NCBI RefSeq assembly: GCF_001447785.1
Contig: NW_015172595.1
Coordinates: 251,036 to 314,829 of the forward strand
DNA from: Gekko japonicus
Taxonomy: Eukaryota
Direction of reading: 5' to 3'
Length of the DNA: 63,794 bases
Below are positions 4,291 to 63,073 of the stretch, one piece after another; the stretch's first letter is position 1, and the number at the start of each line of letters is the position of its first letter. A program made the position numbers and the translations under genes. The notes beneath the pieces were generated by a model. It ran no database searches. It saw only the letters and a program-made list of their open reading frames with translations, and was not told the origin of the DNA.

Positions 4291-6491
4291 AAAGTACATA
4301 GAGCACAAACATCCCAGACATCCAATTCCAAATTTGAATCAATCTGGTTTCCAATATTTTCATATCTCATGACACATGATATCCTACCTGCAAACTCACA
4401 TTATCATAAATGGTTAACGTTGTGAAACATTATGGTAAAAATTGGTTGGGAAAAGACAGTATAAGTAATCCTCACTTCTCTAAATCTGCAGAACAATGAC
4501 CTTAAGTATAATAGAAGATCTTTCTGTTGAAAGGTTAAGTTTTACAATAATTTTGATTTAGTTTTCAAGTTTTAATGAGGTGCACTGTTATGTTAATGTA
4601 TCTTTGTTATTGGCAATAGATTGTTACTACTTGTTTTGAAAAAATAAAATAAATAATAAAAAAGCTTATCAAACAAAGAAGAAATACATGCTACTGGGGG
4701 GCAACTCAGTCACTGAGGGAAACGAAAATATTTTTGGTGGGGAAATTTTGCCTGGGTGTTGGGAAAGAGACAGGGGTTTGTCATAGCAGGTCTTGCCTTC
4801 ACATCTCCAGGCCATTTGACACACTGAGGCCTTGCTCTCTTACTGGGATGTTGCTACGTGGAGCCACGTTGGCAGCTGCTTTTGTTGCCTGGAGATGAGT
4901 GTAAGTTGTAAGAATACTGAGGCTGCCATAACAGCTTCTTCCTAACAAGGCTGAGCTGGGGTAAGTTGACCCTCAGGTTGCTACCTCCCCTGGAGAAAAA
5001 TGTTCTGTCTTTTCTTTTCTTTTTTCCAAACAGTTTTATTCTTTTTCAAAAGGAATACAGAATTCAACATTATAATACACAAATATAGGTTGCTTCACTT
5101 AGAGAAGAAGAAAAAAAGAATACTATAAGATTTCTATCTCATAACAAATGTTCTGTCTTTTCAATAGAGGTTTGATGTGTGGAAATGGTCTCTCTGTCTT
5201 GAGAGTTGCCAACACATCTAATATGTGGTAATGGACAGTTGAAGCTTGTAAAGGCATGGAGGTAAATAATAACATCACCTGGTACATGGCATCACATTAA
5301 GCCTCTGGTTTTTCTGTAGGACATTTTCTTCAGGCCAGTTGGTATCCATATTTGATCCCTGGGTGTTATTGCTGTGCAGTGGAACCAGTATTTCTGTGTT
5401 GTTTTCCATGGTAGCAGAAGCAAAAACCACTACCACACCACTTCCCAAAACATAGGACCAATCCCAAGGAGCTTACAGCCCTCCCCAAGCACCACCCCCA
5501 AATCTCCAGGAGTTTCCCAAGCCAGAGTTGGCAGCCCTGTGTAGGGTTGGTGACAGAGACACATACCCACACCCACCAGCTCTGGCTTTGACTTTAACAG
5601 CAGCCAGTCTACAGAAAGCCTAGGAACAATCATTTCCCTGGCTAATAACTTCTGCTAATGAAGTTATTGCTAAGGACAGCTGCCTCTAAAAACAAAGGCA
5701 GTCCTAGTTGGATGTGAACAAATGCAGTTATATGTACTGAGGACACTTTTTAAATGACATACTTTAAAGTCTTGAAGAGGGGGTAAAACTCCACTTCTAA
5801 GAAACATGGAGCTTTCCCTCTAGAATCCCTAGGTAGGTGTTACCACTAATTAGTGATGGTGCTAAAGTAATGCTCAGGATTTAAAGAACAGTGGCAGGGT
5901 CTGAATTTCACACTTTCACAATGACTGCTGCTGAAAATGAAGAGGTTTACCTTGAATGTCCCATGCTGGCAATAGAAGGTGGTGGTCGTTTTTCAGAAGA
6001 TTGTCGAAGAGGATTGTGAAAATTTTATTATCTGGGGCTGTGGAAGAGCCTGAAAAGCCATCAGATTTAAAAGCTGAGGAGGGATGTAGACTTGGGCAGT
6101 AAATGCATTCTCCTGAAGAAATACTGTACATGATGCAGGCTTTGTGACTAAAATCTCTTGGGGTGTTTTTAAAGAAGGAAGAGCAGATAAGGATGTGTTG
6201 GTCTATGAGGTAAATATCAGTTCCATGAGCACCCACAGCAATTTGCATTGGGAACATGCCATAGAGAAAAACGTTTACCCCCTCCCCCTTGTTCTAATCA
6301 ATGTCCCCTGACTGAATTATTTGCTAAGAAAATGTATATGCTGCTTCTGCAGAGGCAGCTAATTAAAGTAAAAATGATACAATAAAATCATAAAGAACGA
6401 CAGCATCAGAATGATTAATAATAAAATGAGCTCTAAAAAAAGCAAAGGACATAAAAACAGCATAAATGACAATAAAACGTTCACCAACCAA

Positions 6492-7339
6492 AGAAGAGAT
6501 TGGATTCATACCCCGCCCTTCACTACCCAAAGGTGTCTCAGAGCGGCTTACAAACTCCTTTCCCTTCCCCTCCCCACAACAGACACCCTGTGAGGTAGGT
6601 GGGGCTGAGAGAGCACTGACAGAAACTGTTCTTTTTCAAGAACAGCTGTGCCAGAATTATTTTATTTATTTTTATTTATTTATTTATCTTTCAACTTTCT
6701 ACCCCGCTCAAACCCCCTAGGGGGTCTCTGAGCGGCTACAGTTAATTAATTATCCTTAACCTATGGCCACAGATACTGGGGGTGGGGACAACCCTACCGG
6801 CACCCAGTGGAGGGACTGGTAGATCTTTCTTCCCAGGTCAGCTTGTCAGCTCGGCGTCTTGGCTTCTGGCTCCTCCCCTTCCGGTGGTCTTTCGGCGGTG
6901 GATCAGCAGGGCCCTTCCGTCGTGTGGCATGCTCCGGCGCGGCTTCGGCTCAGTCCTCCAGGCTCCACCACGCCTGCGCCTTCCATGCTCCCCACGTCTT
7001 CCTGGCTCCGCCTTTCCACCGACGTCTGTTCCACCGTAGATGTTGTGCCTGGTCGCCATCTTTTGCCGCTCGCCGCTTGCCGTTCACTGTTCTCCGATGC
7101 TCCAACAACCCCCTCGGGGGAGGGTGCCCCCTACCATCTAAGGTAGGTACCCATTTATCTACTCGCGGATTGATGTTAATTGTCGCTTTCGAACCACTGG
7201 GTTAGTGGGAGCTGGGACAAGGGCCAGGTGCTCACTCTTGCCCAAGGTCATCCAGCCAGGTGTAAGTGGAGGAGTGGGGAATCAAGCCTGGTTCTCCCAG
7301 ATTAGAGTCCACGCACTTAACCACTACACCAAATTGGCT
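6492..7339 (-). mobile_element. Squam3-like (Ther1/MIR-derived) tRNA SINE, split by a nested SINE at 6657-7238
   Basis: Segments 6492-6656 and 7237-7339 join into the same consensus as the intact copies at 16062, 21358, 42002 and 52811. Confidence 0.85.
6657..7238 (-). mobile_element. 5'-truncated chimeric SINE (Sauria-type head, variable GC-rich core, L2-type tail), copy 1
   Basis: The minus strand carries GTGAGCACC..CCCAGCTCCC..GGTTCGAAAGC..GTAGATAAATGGGTACC, a CCGCTC...GAGCGG 3' hairpin and a (TAAA)n tail. Confidence 0.8.
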
Positions 7340-7540
7340 CTCTCTAGTAGTACCAGAAGGAAGATATTATTCATAAGAGTCCTCAGACTAGAAGCAGATA
7401 AAAATACAAAAAAGTTGGATGCACTCAGTTAAAAGTACATTTTAATGTTTTACCCTGATGTCAAGAGGTAGACCTGGCAAGCCTCAAGGGGATGGGCATT
7501 CCAAAGGCTAGGTGCCACCACTGAAAAAGCCTAGTGTCTC

Positions 7541-9780: not shown

Positions 9781-12210
9781 AGAACATAAGAAGAGCTCTG
9801 CTGGATTAAACCAATGGGCTATCTAGTCCAGTATCCTGTGGCCCCTAGTTACTCTGGAGGGCCAATGACAAGGCATAGAGGCCAAGGCCTTTCCCTGATC
9901 TTGCCTTCTGGTACTGGTATTCAGAGGTTAACTGCTTCAGAATGTGGAGGTTCCTTTTAGTCTCCATGGCTAGAAGTTGCTGATAGATTTATCCTCCGTT
10001 AATCTGTCTAATCCCCTTCTAAAACTCTTTAGGCCTATTGCCACCACTGCATCCTCTGGCAAAAAATACACATTTTAATCACTGCTTGTGTAAGAAAGTA
10101 TTTCATTTTCTCTATCCTGATTCTGCTGCCCATCAGCCTTACTGGATGCCCTCAACTTCTAGTACTTTGGGGAAAGCACAAAACATTCTCTCTACCCTAT
10201 GCATAATTTTATAAACCTCTAAGGAGACCCTGGTTATCTCTTTTTTAAATTGAAAAGTCCCAGGTTCTTCAGCCTTTCCTCATAGGAAGGGTGCTCCAAT
10301 CCCTTGGTCATCTTGGTTACCCTCTTCTGTACTTTTTCCAGCTCTGCAATATCCATTGTGAGATACAGTGATCAAAACTGCAACTAGTATTCCAAATGAG
10401 GCCATGCCATAGGTCTATATTATAATATTGCCTGCTTCATTTTCAGTCCTTTTTCTAAAAATCCCCAGGATAGAGTTTGCGTTTTTCTCTGCTTTGGCAT
10501 AATGGATTGGCATTTTCATTGAACTATTCACTACAACCCCAAAGTCACTTTCCTTTCAGTCTTAGCAAATTCTGACCCTATTAGCATATACCTAAAGTTG
10601 TGCACCACCTTACACTTGCCTACAATGAACTTCATTTGTCACATTGTTGCCCACTCACTCAATTTGTGTAGATCCTCCTGGAACTTTTCAGTTATCCTTG
10701 GTTTTCATCATGCTAAATAATTTTGTGTCATCTGCAGACTTAGCCAATACACTGCAGTGCTTACCCCCAGTTTCTGATCATTTATGAACAAATTGTATAG
10801 CACCAGCCCCAATACTGATCCCTGTGGAATCCCACCGCTTACTTCCATTGAACAAACTGTCCATTTATTCCTACTCTCTGCTTCCTTTCATTTAACCAGT
10901 TTTAATCTATCAGAAGACCTGTCCTCTTATCCTGTGACTGCTAAGCTTACTCAGGAGTCTTTGGTGAGGTACCTCATCAAAAGCCTTTTGAAAATCTAAG
11001 TATATAATGTCTATCGAGTCACCTTTACCAATCTGTTTCTTCACCTCCTCACAAAACTCAAAAAGGTTAGTGAGGCAGTACTTCCCATTGCGCAAGCCAT
11101 GCTGATTTTCCCTTAGCAAGTTCTGTTCCTCTATGTGCCTAATAATTCTATCTTTGATTACAGTTTGAACTAATTTGCCTGGGAAAGACATTACGCTAAC
11201 TGGCCTGCAATTTCCTGGTTCCCCTCTAGACCCCCTTTAAAAAAACAGTATAACATTTGCTACTCTTCAGTCTTCTGGTACAGTGGCTGACTTTCATGAC
11301 AAGTTACATATACTGGGTAGTCAGTCGATCAACAGTCAGCCATTTGAGATCTCTAAGCATCATTGCAAGTATGCCATCAGTACCTGGACACTTATTAACT
11401 TGTAATTTTCACAATAGGTCTTCATCTCTCATCACCTCAATTTGACTCAATTCTTCAGACTCTCTCCCTAAAAATAGTGGTTGTGGCATGGCTTCATGCC
11501 CCATACATTCCATTGTGAACACATATGCAAAAAATTCATTGAGCTTCTCTGCCATGTCCCCATCTCCCTTTAGCCATCCCTTTGTTCCTTAGTCATCTAA
11601 AGGCCCAGCTGCTTCATTGTGGTTTTTTGCTCTGGATATTTAAAGAAATCCCTGTTGTTCATCCTGATGCTTTTAGCAATCTGCTCCTGAAATTTTATTT
11701 TCACATGCCTAATTATTAACTTACTTTTCTTTTGCCAAACCTTGTGCTCCTTTCTGTTCACTTTGTTGAGCAGACCTTTTTTTAAAAGCCTTTTTGTCTT
11801 TTATGGCTTCCTTTTAAACTTGCCAGTACCTTTCCTAATCTGGAGAACACATTACATGTGGGCTTCAGTTTCCATGGTTTTAAATAGCTTCCAAGCATCT
11901 TCTAGGGATTTTGTTTGCTTGAGTTTCCCTTTCAGCTTCCTTCTAACTAGACTCCTCATTTTTGTAAAGTTTCCTCTTTTGAAATAAAATGTTGCTGTTT
12001 TGGACGTTAGGGGTAATTTCTGTTGACATGAAAGCTGAAATTAACAGCTCTGGAGCCACTGCTCCCAATTGGTTGTAACAGCATCTACATGTCACACTAG
12101 GCTTTGAGCCCTGCTCAGAACCAAGTCCAAGATCACTACCCCACTGGTTGGCTCTTTGAGTAATGAAAAATATCCTGAACTACTACTCCTCTCCCATCAC
12201 GTTACCAAAT
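9781..12210 (-). mobile_element. Decayed CR1 LINE
   Basis: Minus-strand peptide PGKLVQTVIKDRI...NQHGL...YLDFQKAFDEVPHQRLL (CR1 RT). The CR1 3' end (CTTATGTTC) is at 9781-9790. Confidence 0.92.
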
Positions 12211-13833: not shown

Positions 13834-14504
13834 ACATACATACATACATTCATACATGCATATTAGATTTCTATACTGCTCCTTTTTCCGTAGACTCGGA
13901 GCGGTTTACATAGTTTATACAATTATCTAACCTAGGGGCACATAGATAGGGGACGTGAATTCCTTACCCAGGCACCCCCCCTTATGGGCAGTATCTTTTC
14001 TTCTTAGCTTTTTCCCTGGTGGATTCTTCTTTTTGTTGGTACTGGCGATGTTACCGACGTAGGTCTTCAGGTCTTTCCGGCGCAGGCACAGATCTTTCCA
14101 TCTTTTCAACAGTGACACCTCCCGGTTACGGCAGCACACGATCTTGCCGCGCCTCGGCACCCCTCCAGTCAGCCAGCCTTCGCCTCAAATCACTGCCGCG
14201 CCGTCCTCCGGGGCCGATCGCTCCTGCTTGCTGCCTCACTGCTGTTGCCGCCATCTTCCTCACAGCCCGCTCGCCAGCCTGCCGTTGTTGCTGCCGCCGT
14301 GGAACTTCAGCCAAGGGAGTGCCCCCCCACTCCTAGTGAGTAGGTACCCAATTTATCTAATTGCTTAAGGCATTCGAACCGCTGGGTGGGCGGGAGCTGG
14401 GACTAGGACCGGGAGCTCACCCTGGCCATGGTGGGACTCGAACCACCTAAGCTGTTTGGTCAGATGGAATACTGTAGGCATTTACTGCTTGCACCACCGC
14501 TCCC
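13834..14504 (-). mobile_element. Full-length chimeric SINE (Sauria-type head, variable core, L2-type tail), copy 2
   Basis: The minus strand starts GGGAGCGGTGGTGCAAGCAG (A box) ... GGTTCGAGTCCC (B box), then has a Sauria-like body, a CCGCTCC...GGAGCAG hairpin and a (TATG)n tail. Confidence 0.85.
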
Positions 14505-40206: not shown

Positions 40207-40392
40207 GGGGCTGTGGCTCACTAATAGAACATCTGCTTGGAACACAGAAGGTCCCAAGTGCAATGCCTGGCATCTCCAGTTAAAAGGATCAGGAAGTGGG
40301 TGATGTGAAACACCTTCACCTGAAACCCTGGAGAACTGCTGCCAGTCAGAGTACTCAGTGTTAACCTTAATAGCAGTGATCTGATTTAGTAG
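40207..40392 (+). mobile_element. Squam2-like tRNA SINE
   Basis: GGGGCTGTGGCTCA head and the shared body. Confidence 0.8.
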
Positions 40393-45413: not shown

Positions 45414-46492
45414 TTGTTCATAAATGATTTGGAGTTAGGAATAAACAGTGAAGTGGCTAAATTTGTGGATGACACAAAATTGTTCAGGGTGTTGAAAAGC
45501 AGGGAGGACTGTGAGACACTCTAAAGGAATTTGTCAAGGATGGGCGAGTGGGCATCAATGTGGCAAATGGAGTTCAATGTGGCCAAGTGCAAAGTGATGC
45601 ATATTGGGGGCAAAAATCCTAACTATAAATACATGTTGATGGGGTCCGAACTGGCAGAGACTGACCAAGAGAGAGATCTTGGAGTCATAGTAGGTAACTC
45701 ACTGAAAATGCTGAGACAGTGTGTGAATGCAATAAAAAACGCCAACACTATACTGGGGATTATTAGGAGGGGAATTGAAAACAAATCAGCCAGTATCATA
45801 ATGTGCCTGTATAAATCAATGCTGCAACCTCATTTGGAGTACTGTGTGCAGTTCTGGTCACCACACCTCAGAAAGGATATTATAGCATTGGGAAAAGTGC
45901 AGAAAAGGGCCACTAGAATGATAAAAGGGTTGGAACACTTTCCCTATGAAGAAAGGTTAAAGTGCTTGGGGCTCTTTAGCTTGGAGAAACGATGACTGAG
46001 GGGGTGACATGATAGAGGTTTACAATATTATGCATGGGAGGGAGCAGATAGAGAAAGAGGTACTTCTCTCCCTTTCTCACAATAAAAGAACTCATGGGCA
46101 CTCAATGAAATTGCTGAGGAGTCGGGTTAGAACAGATAAAAGGAAGTACTTCTTCACCCAAAGAGTGATTAACACATGGAATTCACTGCCACAGGAGGTG
46201 GTGACAGCTACAAGCATGGATGGCTTCAAGAGGGAATTGGATAAACATATGGAGCAGAGGTCCACCAGTGGCTATTAGCTACAAGGTATAGATAGGAACT
46301 CTCAGTCTGGGGCAAGTGATGCTCTGTATTCTGGCTTCTTGGGGGGAGCAACAGTGGGAGGGCTTCTAGTGTCCTGGCCCCACTAGTGGACCTCCTGATG
46401 GCACCTGGTATTTTTGGCCACTGTGTGACAGAGTGGTGGACTGGATGGGCCATTGGCCTGATCCAACATTGGCTTCTCTTATGTTCTTACTT
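45414..46492 (+). mobile_element. 5'-truncated CR1 LINE
   Basis: FINDLELGINSEVAKFVDDT, FNVAKCKVMHIG and [12 protein letters not shown] motifs, ending in a TTATGTTCT tail. Confidence 0.95.
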
Positions 46493-48571
46493 ACCTACCA
46501 CTCACAATTCACCCTCTTTTTATACCTACACAGCTAAATGTCTGGGATTGGATATACTGGGTTGGATCCAAACGAACACTGCTATCCTGGGAGATGCGAA
46601 CCTGCAGAGGGACCCAATAAGGAGCTACACTGGCATATCCTTGAGATACGGGCGCGTATCCCCGAGATGCCCTGGTGGAATATCACAGCAGCGCTGGTGA
46701 AATATCACAGCAGCACTAAATCACTCACAGGTACTGGCGTGGCAATGGCGTGGAGCAATGCTGGTGCAAGTGGCTGCACATGAGGGAAAAGGGGCAGACC
46801 CAGAGGTGTGGGAGGAGTTAGTTTGCTCCCTAAGTTGCCACAGCCCAGGAACACCCTCCAGACCAGCATAAAATTACACCAGCAAAAACCACAGATGCCC
46901 ATACAATAGAAAAGGCAAAACACACCCATCCCTGCTGTGGCCACACCCACAGGCTCCAGCATAACACAGGTTGCTAACTACAGCTGCAGTCAATCAATCT
47001 TCTCTCCAGCACCGGCCAAGGCCCCTCTCCCCCAAACTACATAAATCCCAGCAAGGATGTCCCATAGTCCAGTAGGTAGGGCATGAAATGTAGGACTATC
47101 TTAGGGGTCTCTGCTGTGCACACTTAGAGCTTACAGCATTGCACTTTAGTGGTGGGAGAAGCACAGAGTGCACTGCACTCGGTACTAACACCCAAGGGGG
47201 AGAGCAAAGTCTAGGCTGTGTGGCTAGCATATCTCTCACACTAGTAAGCATAGCATGTGAGAGCTCACAGTGGGACGGAAGGGGTGGAATGTCTGTCTGC
47301 ACCAGCAGATTTTGCAAGTGGTTACATTGTGCAGTTCCTTCAAACAGATGAGACAGAGATTGTGCTCACCACTATGGGTCATTTTAGTAGCACATATTGT
47401 GCATTTTTTGAGAAGTGCCTTGGCACTATGCCTGAGACCACAGGCAGTCAAAACAGCAGAGACCTAGGGTAGGCTGATGAGAGTCACCTCACCCAGTCCG
47501 ATGTATCTCCCACAGAAGAAATGTAATCCCACTGGTACAAAAGGAGAGCAAGGAGGGAAAACCTCGAAGCAAAAAAACCATGACAGAATCGTACTGAACA
47601 GCTACACTGGGAAGCACCTATCCATGCAGTGACAAAAAAGCAACTGCGGTAGAAGGGGGTGCCCCACCTCTGGATCGTGTGACGGTTTAGGCAGGAAAAG
47701 CCATTAGCTCTGGCTCTGGAAGGGAGGGGCACCCCTCAAAGGGGCTTTTTAGCTGCAAAGAAAAATCTTTCCATTTTCTGAAGACAGAAAACGAAGGGGT
47801 AGCCATGAGCTAACAAATGGTTGCATGTGGGCAGTGCTCTTGCTTGTGGAGGGATGGGCATCCTGTCAGCCATATGGGTGACCTTCTTCTGTGGGCTTGG
47901 GGGGTGCTCAGGCCATGTGCCTCTTTGAGGGTTGCACTGTCACTGGGTCTTTCCTCCCAATCTGCTGTGTCTCTGTGGTGAGCAGGAGGTGTGGCAAAGT
48001 GAAGTAGCCAGATCAGTAGGCAGTGCTTTGCTGCACTTGTGTGTGCCACTCAAAGGAATGTCATTGGGTACTGTGGCCTGGTCAGTGGGTGCTGCTGGGG
48101 TTGCTATGGTCTCCAGCATGCTTGCTATACTATCCCTGCCTTGCAGAGGGGCAGGTGTTATTATTTACCCCCCGCAGAATGTCCACAGGAAACAGACCAG
48201 CAGTGCCTCCAACGTGCTGGTGACTAGCCAGCTCCACCATGGCAGTCCTCAGGATTTGGCTGCCCAATGGAAGGATGGAACTTTCTTGCCTTCCTGGTCC
48301 TACTGCAGCCCACTGGTCTCCATGAAATGCTGCTCCTGGAGGACAGGGGACCACGAAGAACGACTTAGGTGGGTCTGCAGTGGGAAGGGTGGAATTGGTG
48401 GAAATCACCAATGTAGCCTGGATCCAACCCCTTTTCAGAGTTCTCTGCTGCTGCAATCAGCAGCATTGATCATGACTGCAAGACCTGATTCATCACCTAG
48501 GTTTGTTAGTGAGTAATGCATCATTGTTTAAAGGAGACAACAAAGTAGTAAGTCTCAACTGTCAAATGTTA

Positions 48572-49240
48572 GGGAGTGGTGGCGCAAGCAGTAAATGAAG
48601 CCTGCATTCCATCTGTCCGAACAGCTTCAGCTGTTCGAGCCCCACCATGGCCGGGGTGAGCTCCCAGTCCAGATCCCAGCTCCCGCTCACCCAGCAGCTC
48701 GAAAGCCCGTATGGGCAAGTAGACAAATGGGTACCTGCTCTTAGAGCAGGGGGGGGCACCCGTCCTTCCCTTCGTGATGGCGTGGCAGCAGCATGAGCAG
48801 CGGAGTAACAGTGGCGGCAGTGGAGAACATGGCGGCAGTGGTGAGGCGAGCGACCGAGTGGAGACTGGGCTGGCAGAGCACGGACGCGGACCGACGCAGT
48901 AAGCCGGAGCCAACCGGACAGAGGCCGGCTGCGGGAGCATGCGCGGACGTGCACTATGGCCCATACCCGGAAAGGAGCCACGACGACCAGAGGAAGACCT
49001 GTGCCAGAAAAAAGATGACGCCAGATTGAAAAGACTTCCCGCAAAAAGAGACTATAACAACGAAGACTCCGCTATGGGTGCCTGTTAGGTTAGTCAATTC
49101 CCCCTCAATTGTATGTGTGTGGCCCTAGGAAGAGATTGTGATAAATTGTATATGCAAAACCGCTTAGAGCCCTTAGGGGGTGAGCGGTCTACAAATTGAA
49201 GGAATAAATAAATAAAATAAAATAAATAAAAGAAAAAAAA
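48572..49240 (+). mobile_element. Full-length chimeric SINE (Sauria-type head, variable core, L2-type tail), copy 3
   Basis: A box TGGCGCAAGCAG (48580), B box GTTCGAGCCC (48633), Sauria-like body, CCGCTT...GAGCGG hairpin (49160-49187) and an A-rich tail. Confidence 0.85.
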
Positions 49241-52239: not shown

Positions 52240-52430
52240 GCCCTGCCCTGGATGGCCCAGGCTAGCCCCATCTCATCAGATCTTGAAAGCTAAGCAGGGT
52301 TGGCTCTAGTTAATATTTGGATGGGAGACCACCAAGGAAGTCCAGGGTCACTACACAGAGGCAGGCCTCTGAAGGTGTCTTGCCTTGAAGACCCTATGGG
52401 GTCTCTGTAAGTCAGCTGCAACTTGACACA
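52240..52430 (+). mobile_element. 5S rRNA-derived SINE
   Basis: ATCTCATCAGATCTTGAAAGCTAAGCAGGGTTGG...TGGATGGGAGACC is a decayed 5S internal promoter region. It is followed by an RTE-like tail. Confidence 0.8.
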
Positions 52431-54593: not shown

Positions 54594-54805
54594 AGGAGGT
54601 GCCATAGCTCAGTGGCAGAGCATCTGTTTTGTAAACAGAAGATTACGGGTTCAATACCTGATATCTCCAGTTAAAAGGATGCAGTAGTAGGTGATGTGAA
54701 AGACCTGTATTTGAAATCCTGGAGAGTTGATGCTAGTCAGAGTAGATAACACTCATCTTGAGAGGCTGAGTAGAATGATCTGACTGAGTAGAAGGCAGTG
54801 TGTAG
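54594..54805 (+). mobile_element. Squam2-like tRNA SINE
   Basis: TAGCTCAGTGG A box, GGTTCAATACC B box and the shared body. Confidence 0.8.
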
Positions 54806-59266: not shown

Positions 59267-62048
59267 TTGGAGGTGGGGTAGCTCTGTATGTCAGAGAGGG
59301 TATAAAGTCCAGAAAGATTGAGAGGCTAAGATAATTGGATTTGCTTCTGGAAATTCTATGGGTTGAAATAGGGGGGCCAAAAGGAAACTTAACACTGGGA
59401 GTTTGTTATTGGCCACCAGATCAAAAGATAGAGGAAGATTATAAAATGATGAATGAATTAAAGATAGCAGCTAGACAAAAAACCTGTGTTGTAATAGGTG
59501 ATTTTAACTACCCACACATTGATTGGGTCAATATGTGTTCTAGTCGAGAAAAAGAGATTGAGTTTCTAGACTCTAAATGACTGTACTATGGAGCAGATGG
59601 TCACGAAACCTACCAGGGGTGAGACGATCCTTGATTTGGTCCTATGTAACACTCAAGACCTGGTGAGAGATGTAAAAGTGATTGTACCACTTGGGAACAG
59701 TGAGCATAATGTTGTATAAATAGGAAATAGGAAAGACTGACATAACCACTTTTAACTTTAAAATGGGTAACTTCTCTGATATGAGGGGTCATGTGGGGAG
59801 GAAACTGTAAGGAAAAGTAGAAAGGGTCAAAACCATTGGGGAAGCTTGGAGACTATTTAAAACTACAATCCTAGAAGCTCAAAAATATATATTCTGCAGA
59901 TTAGGAAAGGCACAAATAGGTATAGGAAAAAGCCTGCATGGTTAACAAACAAAGTAATGGAAGCTGTAAAAGGTAAAAAGGATTCCTTTAAGCAGTGGAA
60001 AGCTAGTCGCAGTGAGGCTGATAAAATGGAACACAGGCTATGGCAAATAAATGCAAGTCTGTGGTCAGGCAGGCAAAACGGGAATATGAGGAGCGTATAG
60101 CAAAAAATGTAAAGACCAACAATAAAACTTTCTTCAAATACATTGGAAGCATGAAACCAGCCAGGGAGGCAGTGGGGCCCTTGGATGACCAAGGGGTAAA
60201 AGGAGTACTGAAGGATGAAAGGGAAATGGCTGAGAAGCTAAATGCATTTTTTGCCTCTGTCTTCACTGTGGAAAATGAGAAGTGCTTGCCCACTCCAGAA
60301 CCGCTGAGTTCGGGATGGGTGTTGAAAGACCTGAGTCAGATTGAGGTGACGAGAGAGGAGGTCCTAAAACTGATAGACAACTTAAAAACTGGAAAATCAC
60401 CAGGCCCAGATGGCATACATCCGAGAGTTCTGAAAGAACTCAAATGTGAACTTGTGGATCTCCTTACAAAAATATGTAATCTTTCCTTAAAATCTGCCTC
60501 CATTCCTGAGGACTGGAATGTCACTCCCATCTTTAAAAAGGGTTCCAGAGGACAGCCGGGAAATTACAGGCCAGTCAGTCTGACATCGATACCGGGTAAA
60601 TTGGTGGAAACCATTATTAAGGAAAGAATTAGTAGGCACATAGATGAACAAAACCTATTGAGGCAGATTCAGCATGGGTTCTGTAAGGGAAGATCTTGTA
60701 TCACTAACCTGTTAGTGTTCTTTGAGGGGGTGAACACACATGTGGACAAGGGGGATCCAATAGATGTTGTTTACCTTGGTCTCCAGAAAGCTTTTGATAA
60801 AGTTCCTCATCAAAGGCTCCTAAGTAAGTTTAAAAATTATGGGATAAAAGGACAAGTCCTTTTANNNNNNNNNNNNNGGGTGTGCACCCCCCCCCCCCCC
60901 CCCGTCTTTTTTCAGGTTCAGTCGGTTCAGTCAGATCTAGCTACAGTAATCCAGGCTATAGTTACATCTAGACTAGGGGTGTGCATCCTCCCCAGCTTTT
61001 TTCAGATTCAGCATTTAAAAATGTCTTCTCCCTTCACTCATGGAGACCTACTGCTGCCACGGCACAACTCAAGGAGTGAAGGGAAGTCATTGTGAGGCAT
61101 TTCAAAGGGATCTGTTGAGGATGGGCGAGTGGGCATCAACACAGCAAATGGGGTTCAATGTGACCAAGTGCAAGGTGATGCACATTGGGGGGGAAATCCG
61201 AACTATAGGGTCCGAACTGACCAAGAGACTGACCAAGAGAGAGATTTTGGAGTCGTAGTGGATAACTCATTGAAATTGTTGAAACAGTGTATGACTTTAA
61301 TAAAAAAGGCCAATGCTATGCTGGGGATTATTAGGAATGGAATTGAAAACAGATCAGCCATTATCATAATGCCACTATAATAAATCAATGGGGCAACCTC
61401 ATTTGGAATACTGTGTGCAGTTCTGGTCACCACACCTTAAAAAGGATATTATAGCTTTGGAAAAAGTACAGAAAAGGGCCACTAGAATGATAAAAGGGTT
61501 GGAACACTTTCCCTATGAGGAAAGGTTAAAGCGCTTAGGGCTCTTTAGTTTGGAGAAACGATGACTGAGGGGTGACATGATTGAGGTTTATAAGATTATG
61601 CATGGGATAGAGCAGGTAGAGAAAGAGGTACTTTTCTTCCTTTCTCACAATACAAGAACTCATGGGCATTCAATGAAATTGCTGAGCGGTGGGGTTAGAA
61701 TGGATAAAAGGAAGTGCTTCTTCACCCAAAGAGTGATTAACACATGGAATTCACTGCCACAGGAGGTGGTGATGGCGACAAGCATGGATGGCTTCAAAAG
61801 GGAATATGGAGCAGAGGTCCATCAGTAGCTATTAGCCAGAAGTTATAGATAGGGACTCTGGGGCGAGTGATGCTCTGTCATCTTGGTGCTTGGGGGGGGT
61901 CAACAGTGGGAGGTCTTCTAATGTCCTGGCCCCACTGGTGGACCTCCTGATGGCACCTGGTATTTTTGGCCACTGTGTGACAGAGTGTTGGACTGGATCC
62001 AACATTGGCCTGATCCAACATTGGTGTTTCTTATGTTCTTATGTTCTT
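59267..62048 (+). mobile_element. CR1 LINE, most of ORF2 (endonuclease + RT), decayed, with a gap and a foreign patch
   Basis: GGGVALYVREG, IGDFNYPHIDW, KSPGPDGIHPRVLKEL, NYRPVSLTS and KAFDKVPHQRLL motifs, an (TTCTTATG)n tail and a short TSD TACAG. Confidence 0.95.
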
Positions 62049-63073
62049 ACAGCGGCAAGATCTCTTATTGTATCCTATAGCCCCATAGAATACAATGGAA
62101 AAATTGTACTGCTGCTGCGGCATGACTCCAGAGAGTAGAGTTTAAATGCAGCGGTGGCACAATCTTTCCATTGTATTCTATGAGGCCATAGGATACAATA
62201 GGAGATTGTGCTGCTGCTGTGGTGTGACTCCAGAGAGAAGGGGTTTAAACTTTAAAACCCTTCTCGCTTTGCTTCCCCTGCCAGCCCGTCTTGGCAGGCC
62301 GCTTGGAGAAGGGAAAGGGAGGCTGTTAAAGATGCATCCCCAACCTTTCTTTGCTTCTCCAGCCACCCTTCCAAGGCGGGCTGGCTGGGGAAACTAAGGA
62401 AGGTTGGGGAGGCATCTTTAAGAGACTCCCCTTTGCTTCCCCAACCAGTGCGTCTTGTCAGGCTGGCTGGGGAAGAGAAGGTGTTGTACAGATTAGATTC
62501 CATGTCAAAAATGAAGTCAAATGAGGAGGAACATCTATGTTTTATTTCAATTAACAAGGAAACTGACCAAATAGTCCATCCAAAATTGACTACTTTCTTC
62601 TCAGCATATTCAGGGAATATGCTTCAATTAACAGGCAAAGCAATTGGACCAAATAACTCATCAAAAGTTGACAACTTTCTTTTTCTTCTTCTTTTTCTTC
62701 ATCTTCTTCTTCTTGAACATATTCAGGAAATACATGATTTTTTATACATGGAATAACATCATCAAGAAAACAATATTCAAAAAGCATAATTGGTTACAAA
62801 AGACAGTGATAATTTGAGTAATAATCCTCTGATTGGCCAGATGTAAAGAAACATATATCTACGTCAATCTAAGTAAAACCTAGGTGTTTACTTAACCTAA
62901 CCTAAATGATAATGGGCAAGGATTCTTCATACCCTAAACAAAAGTATTCATTACTGATATGAGACTAAAATCGTCTCTGACCCAGACATTGCAAGGTTTT
63001 GCCCTTAAGAACTACAGAATCATGAACTTTGTACCTATTATATTGTCTGCTAACAATATCAGACCTACAAGAG

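Follow-up and report, generated by a model that had tools for sequence, protein, structure and literature searches.

A 63,794-nt stretch of the Gekko japonicus genome (contig NW_015172595.1, forward-strand positions 251,036 to 314,829; hereafter the window) contains three copies of a short interspersed element (SINE) family that, judged by its sequence, is a tail-swapped SINE, in which a 5' domain of the Sauria SINE/Squam1 type is joined to an L2-type tail. Two complementary 7-nt arms likely pair in the RNA of this element, enclosing a variable core of ~330 nt, and the resulting fold has likely been selected for the L2-driven retrotransposition competence of source copies. We assign this reading a probability of roughly 0.68. 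It draws on the near-invariance of the arms across copies with very different cores and on two subfamilies in which both partners of a base pair have changed together.

Results

Conservation and matched changes in the long-range helix

A preliminary description of the window had reported a short hairpin after GGGTAC in each copy, followed by the first of two complementary 7-mers. The hairpins and all six 7-mers were found where it had placed them, with arm start-to-start distances of 321, 346, and 323 nt in copies 1, 2, and 3, but all three hairpins are longer than it gave, since their stems also take in the CC of GGTACC, opposite the G-run that follows. The GGCACTC arm of copy 2 is the product of a private deletion, its subfamily having GGCACCC; within the window, the long helix therefore displays invariance rather than covariation. 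A second GGGTGCC lies in the core of the copy 2 subfamily (14156-14162, minus strand) and is a possible rival partner for the 5' arm.

Ninety loci were taken in genome order from matches to a 5' anchor pattern; three were Squam1 and 87 belonged to this family. The 5' arm was present within one mismatch in 85 of the 87. Tails without N were available for 74 loci, and both arms were parsed in 68, with seven pairs in 58 copies, six in nine, and five in one, so the complementarity noted in the window is not due to chance. By inspection, three of the six unparsed copies have intact complementary arms, and the other three are without the 3' module.

For two loci with altered arms, further copies were sought with core-only queries, each set of 30 loci containing its query locus. 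In subfamily A, 23 of 30 loci carry GGTACCC/GGGTATC, one more is privately changed, and six have no parsed 5' arm. Subfamily B has exact GGCACCT/AGGTGCC in 17 of 30 loci, the rest being truncated or privately mutated, and its 3' arm begins with A in all 30. Both subfamilies have U-A in place of C-G; the position affected is pair 3 in subfamily A and pair 7 in subfamily B. The pair-3 change also accompanies a divergent core (loci L474 and L436), where it and the change in subfamily A are probably one event.

As loci were added, they were grouped by core into 62, then 72, and finally 97 clusters; some 100 core variants were sampled out of more than 5,000 copies. Every majority change at pairs 2-7 in the 34 multi-copy clusters keeps a Watson-Crick or G-U pair. 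Apart from the double change, those at pairs 2-6 keep wobble pairing: pair 2 shows C to U, pair 4 shows A to G (in clusters that a targeted search had enriched), and pairs 5-6 are without any change. Genome-wide, a pattern for an altered arm position 4 had only 39 matches, versus 4 in the control; the partner had changed in none of 26 readable copies, as expected from post-insertion decay or wobble. Tree-shuffle tests of the long helix gave P=0.001 with 26 clusters and P=0.004 with 14, and a statistic permitting stepwise change gave P=0.044, all on multi-copy clusters. The earlier proposal that selection keeps this helix thus finds support in the two matched double changes, at modest statistical power, and we consider the long-range helix probably a real, selected RNA scaffold.

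Several results weigh against this interpretation. When single copies were included (72 clusters, base-blind null), the long helix gave P=0.21; only after that result were the tests confined to multi-copy clusters, on the ground that post-insertion mutations escape selection. The covariation analysis that had been suggested was run as an R-scape-like test of our own; it supported the small hairpin but not the long-helix pairs, for which the all-versus-all comparison gave E values of at least 103, non-significant because each column holds only one or two changes. Minimum-energy folding recovers the long helix in only 5 of 36 copies, forcing it to form in copy 1 carries a cost of 7.5 kcal/mol, and whole-RNA folding has z=0.65. 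Pair 1 is broken as A-C in one 2-copy cluster and as G-A in a 3-copy cluster, and pair 7 is C-A or bulged in the sister lineage of subfamily B (L440, L473), indicating that compensation in subfamily B was stepwise. We found neither a co-adapted inward extension of the long helix (P=0.87) nor a clear truncation pile-up at the 3' arm (~6 of 48 within 8 nt, several breakpoints being mis-assigned). No full-length partner long interspersed element (LINE) was recovered for the family, and a comparison of the Squam1 inner domain with the core gave no similarity beyond shuffles (z 0.35, 0.69, -1.2).

Separately, by eye, most subfamilies in which an additional T follows the 3' arm also have an additional G preceding the 5' arm; together the two indels would contribute one more G-U pair.

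Head domain, small hairpin, and truncation hotspot

The head domain is extensively paired (93.8% of cells over 39 pairs and 28 sequences; 34-47% in slid controls), with two-sided change at nine pairs. The small hairpin after GGGTAC is paired in 416 of 432 cells across 72 clusters, and the impression from the window that it covaries was confirmed. Its pair 4, G-C in 36 of these clusters and A-U in 28, ranked first among 1,711 column pairs in the R-scape-like test (E=0.045), ahead of pairs 3 and 6 (E of 2.3 and 2.6), and the hairpin's own strands pair better than swapped strands (-11.6 versus -9.3 kcal/mol). The same-branch count for this hairpin was unsteady, with P=0.009 for 26 clusters, 0.73 for 14, and 0.35 for 72. 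The copy 2 subfamily is present in the 26- and 14-cluster tree-shuffle tests and absent from the R-scape-like, 72-cluster, and own-versus-cross tests.

Truncation of the head is not evenly distributed: of 36 family copies truncated in the head, 22 begin in a 15-nt segment at the head-closing strand (Table 1), and of 15 truncated Squam1 copies, 8 begin at CAG^CTCC or one base later. This pattern suggests either that the folded head halts reverse transcriptase, perhaps with the help of a pseudoknot involving the GUGAGCU loop, or that the RNA is cut at a precise site. The loop GAGCT (window 48649-48684) can form an H-type pseudoknot with AGCTC ten bases downstream, in competition with the head-closing helix; no covariation of the GAGCT/AGCTC pairing was seen. 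A more elaborate proposal is that the head processes itself at CAG^CUCC, by way of an undescribed ribozyme or processing signal that Squam1 has as well, and that the SINE RNA is a large, conserved scaffold resembling structured non-coding RNAs, one domain of which can expand, and whose ancestral helix accepted a five-fold expansion and a change of LINE. We hold this combination to be rather unlikely.

The variable core

Median core identity between clusters is 59%, compared with 52% for shuffled cores and 78% for the 5' domain, while the arms are nearly unchanged. The core had been pictured as a free domain looped out by the helix. This part of the picture did not stand, as the core is homologous across subfamilies and carries co-adapted hairpins of its own. 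The mid-core motif GGAGCC-N3-9-GGAC is present in 58 of 62 clusters (the copy 2 subfamily is without its usual form), and a stricter version has 1,130 genomic matches versus 4 in the control. All 30 inspected loci with this motif lay within the family, and among them no donor of the core was found. The flanking stem changes in step between clusters (GGCC/GGCC, GGTC/GACC, GATT/AATC, CAGT/GCTG), and the mid-core flanks pair better with their own partners than with swapped ones (-10.7 versus -8.8, SD 0.25, a difference of ~7 standard deviations); the controls gave P=0.76 and a borderline P=0.05. The first core hairpin is likewise co-adapted (P=0.00015 in the own-versus-cross test, which is alignment-free and uncorrected for relatedness). 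Judged by position only, the mid-core stem did not pass (204 of 288 cells, P=0.95), owing to linker indels.

Cores contain 11.5% T, and TTTT occurs in only 1 of 61, a composition that would fit RNA polymerase III (Pol III) read-through. In a single copy, at locus L170, the core has been replaced by a 113-nt piece of a long terminal repeat-type repeat, likely by template switching or conversion. Among 40 matches examined, none pointed to a swapped-core subfamily founded by L170. The sequence flanking a truncated copy elsewhere (L302) is identical to the 113-nt insert of L170/L301.

Family size and anatomy

Members of the family are ~610-710 nt long. The 5' anchor pattern has 5,364 matches in the Gekko japonicus genome (14 in the control), and a 3' module pattern has 6,632 (7 in the control). 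In size and copy number the family falls among SINEs, which passages of PMC3531059 describe as interspersed elements shorter than 1 kb with at least 100 copies. The features of the family, as laid out in copy 1, and the three window copies are listed in Table 1.

Table 1. Window coordinates of the SINE copies and of the structural features of copy 1
Feature	Position	Strand	Basis
Copy 1, full-length element, ~640 nt plus (TAAA)n tail	48572..49230	+	sequence
tRNA-like head with box A-like (48580-48591) and box B-like (48633-48642) segments, refolded into nested helices	48572..48648	+	sequence
Covarying hairpin with conserved GUGAGCU loop, common to Squam1	48649..48670	+	4/6 pairs changed on both sides
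Head-closing strand; 5'-truncation hotspot, cut after 48679 in Squam1 register	48676..48684	+	
Stem ACCCA/TGGGT (Squam1: ACCTA/TAGGT) with GAA/AGTA motif	48689..48732	+	
Small hairpin	48734..48750	+	covarying across family
5' arm of long-range helix, GGCACCC	48755..48761	+	
Variable core, G/A-rich, T-poor, CpG-rich; family median 326 nt	48762..49075	+	
Conserved mid-core stem with GGAG/AC internal loop (GGAGCC..GGAC, 48906-48919)	48902..48926	+	
3' arm of long-range helix, GGGTGCC	49076..49082	+	
Conserved 3' module: irregular hairpin, C-run, TGTGGCCNTAG motif	49083..49128	+	
L2-type terminal stem-loop and (TAAA)n tail	49157..49230	+	
Copy 2, full length; hairpin 14326-14344; arms 14317-14323 and 13971-13977	13845..14504	-	
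Copy 3, 5'-truncated; hairpin 7130-7147; arms 7122-7128 and 6799-6805	6660..7236	-	

ARAGORN and Rfam did not call the head of the family as a tRNA, and Rfam scans gave no match of any kind over the elements. The GAA/AGTA motif in the stem that follows is presumably loop-E-like. The 3' module was confined to this family at all 30 inspected loci and is not LINE-derived in that sample, and, in a comparison bearing on possible CORE-SINE kinship, a profile of the SINE body matched no other family in the sampled DNA. According to a tail profile that matched 80 Squam3-like ends, the last 50-60 nt resemble Squam3-like ends and ends that lie behind T-rich untranslated regions. Passages of PMC7983390 tie Squam3-type ends to L2, and from these, together with general background, we infer the L2 label of the tail. 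Repeats resembling target-site duplications (TSDs) flank 11 of 107 family copies, versus 9 of 14 Squam1 copies and 2 of 87 controls.

The host of copy 3 is another SINE, which we take to be Squam3-like and which lies in two pieces (7237-7342 and 6488-6659). Passages of PMC7983390 describe its type of tail. Elsewhere in the window, tRNA-like heads recognized by ARAGORN/Rfam (54598-54669 and 40207-40278) belong to a two-copy repeat family that is probably another SINE rather than tRNA genes, and a weak match to 5S rRNA (52249-52351, 25.9 bits), followed by non-5S sequence, is probably a 5S-derived SINE. Two ~1-kb copies with 83-94% identity (45510-46498 and 61091-62050) look like LINE 3' fragments; inverted pieces related to this pair lie near 10233-11257.

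Kinship with Squam1

The 5' body of the family matches both the published Squam1 (supplement of PMC10058329) and the Squam1 of this genome, whose anchor has 50,143 exact matches. The two are near-identical from GTGAGCTCCC to GGTACC, share the truncation hotspot, and have, at roughly matching places, a hairpin after GGTA (of different sequence in Squam1) and then a helix preceding GG. In Squam1 the order is small hairpin, GAAGGTAA(A)C, a helix around 57-66 nt, and GG. The differences are considerable. Squam1 is ~350-360 nt long and has a Bov-B-type 3' end, (ACCTTT)n, and frequent TSDs, whereas this family has an L2-type tail and few TSDs; its enclosed core has a median of 326 nt; and GAAGGTAA is absent from this L2-tailed family with its ~100 sampled core variants. 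The features of Sauria SINE/Squam1 used here follow passages of PMC10058329, PMC13295347, and PMC10702118.

The Squam1 helix is GGCGT/ACGCC in lacertids (supplement of PMC10058329) and AGCGTT/AGCGCT in 17 of 30 copies in this genome. If it corresponds to the long helix, then pairs 4 and 5 covary between the families and the core is an expanded loop, not cargo lodged between modules of unrelated origin. We put such descent at about even odds, on the strength of position and the GGC/GCC-GG frame. GAAGGTAA is complementary to the (ACCTTT)n tail of Squam1 itself and paired with it in three of five folds; loss of GAAGGTAA alongside the old tail would fit its absence from the L2-tailed family. Pairing between GAAGGTAA and the tail could also explain why the Squam1 tail differs from the Bov-B tail. 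Squam1 copies are inserted into or beside copies of this family at L330, L342, L461, and L299, so Squam1 was active later than at least some of them.

Discussion

Proposed mechanism

We propose that Pol III would make a full-length RNA of the SINE, which would fold into a head domain; the small hairpin, stacking on the long helix; a core that this helix encloses and that forms hairpins itself; and a 3' module with the L2-type stem-loop. The L2 protein, as the putative partner, would recognize the tail and reverse-transcribe the RNA, and selection would work on source copies. The long helix, if it forms in vivo, may benefit the element by preventing the C-rich head and 3' module from pairing wrongly with the G-rich core, and may set the head beside the 3' module to build a protein-binding platform; judging by the geometry, it may unite head and tail for a function. 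RNA reads from three runs match the family on both strands about equally and have no start or end pile-ups, which makes them uninformative about transcript ends; read-through is possible, and no joints indicating core excision were found in the reads over copy 1. These reads therefore establish neither an independent transcript nor excision of the core.

Alternative explanations

The strongest competitor, which we nevertheless regard as unlikely, is that the helix is real but no more than an inherited folding feature, kept because misfolded RNA is degraded or poorly transcribed, with no specific head-to-tail role in retrotransposition. Such a view accommodates a helix of just 7 bp with tolerant ends and the presence of a similar helix in Squam1 beside a different LINE tail. 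It does not readily account for substitution counts in which the arms and 3' module stay fixed across ~100 core variants while neighbouring bases vary freely. Many copies without a 5' arm inserted as truncated products, which might also speak for this view, but truncated DNA copies are uninformative about the RNA template. Alternatively, the 7-mers could be conserved as sequence motifs, as protein sites on DNA or RNA or through local pairing with the upstream palindromic GGGTACC, and the matched changes could be coincidental. The absence of change at pairs 5 and 6 in multi-copy clusters, the non-significant all-versus-all test, and the better pairing of each changed subfamily A arm with the upstream GGTACC all speak for this account. 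Against it, both fixed non-wobble changes in the inner 3' arm accompany the exact change in the partner, the upstream pairing fails in subfamily B (C-A) and in GGGAACC subfamilies, and the upstream GGTACC bases are already used by two covarying helices; we judge coincidence of this kind improbable.

Two further possibilities concern what the helix encloses. The core could be a captured Pol II promoter or small gene that the helix merely brackets. Its CpG observed/expected ratio of 0.93 and its GC-box (46 of 61 cores), CCGGAA (35 of 61), and A.ATGGCG (23 of 61) motifs, all above shuffles, have a promoter-like flavour, yet this enrichment is confounded by common descent, the cores hold no conserved open reading frame, the mid-core motif was found in this family only (30 of 30 loci), and the core hairpins are co-adapted as RNA. 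We consider captured cargo very improbable. Scarcely credible, and the least probable of all, is an HDV-like (hepatitis delta virus-like) ribozyme in which the long helix is P1 and the core a long J1/2 insertion. HDV-like ribozymes of R2/RTE elements can have a long J1/2, and the 7-bp helix here does start with G, span a long variable insert, and precede GG or TGG. Passages of PMC5786205 also report HDV-like ribozymes in RTE-type 5' regions. Our own descriptor (P1, P2, P3/L3, P1.1, and J4/2 in order) nonetheless matched 0 of 107 copies, with P2, P3/L3, and J4/2 not found; Rfam returned no ribozyme match with E up to 10 at 20 loci or up to 5 in the window; and copy starts are not piled at G1 (6 of 103, scattered within -30 to +10), giving no sign of cleavage there. 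After weighing these alternatives, we continue to favour a long-range helix selected in source copies for retrotransposition.

Relation to known elements and significance

Squam3, as described in passages of PMC7983390, shares with this family an L2-type terminal stem-loop and a low TSD rate but has another head and body, is 218-271 nt long, and is without a long variable core. ERE4B and WALLSI2 similarly retained their body while exchanging the LINE-derived 3' end, although the relevant passages of PMC5786205 describe neither a covarying long-range helix nor an expanded structured loop in them. Resemblances to the 5S rRNA 3' end, signal recognition particle helix 8, a k-turn, and adenovirus VA RNA were weighed by eye and dropped. 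Tail exchange in SINEs is itself already known (PMC5786205), and passages of PMC10702118 give 190-350 nt for described squamate SINEs. Our literature search turned up no description of the family and no report of covariation in the body of a Sauria-type SINE; the family may be present in Repbase, Dfam, subscription journals, or the supplements of PMC3531059 and PMC10670947. Our verdict is a long-range RNA helix, probably real and selected, in a tail-swapped Sauria-type SINE.

The function of SINE bodies is usually given as unknown (passages of PMC10702118 and PMC7983390), because in most families the diverged source lineages are too few for covariation to be read. This family has dozens of diverged source lineages, which lets selection on RNA structure be followed one pair at a time, even for pairing across 330 nt. 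The family therefore offers exact mutate-and-rescue targets for work on the role of a SINE body, and it suggests a way in which a SINE can exchange its LINE partner and become longer while its fold remains intact.
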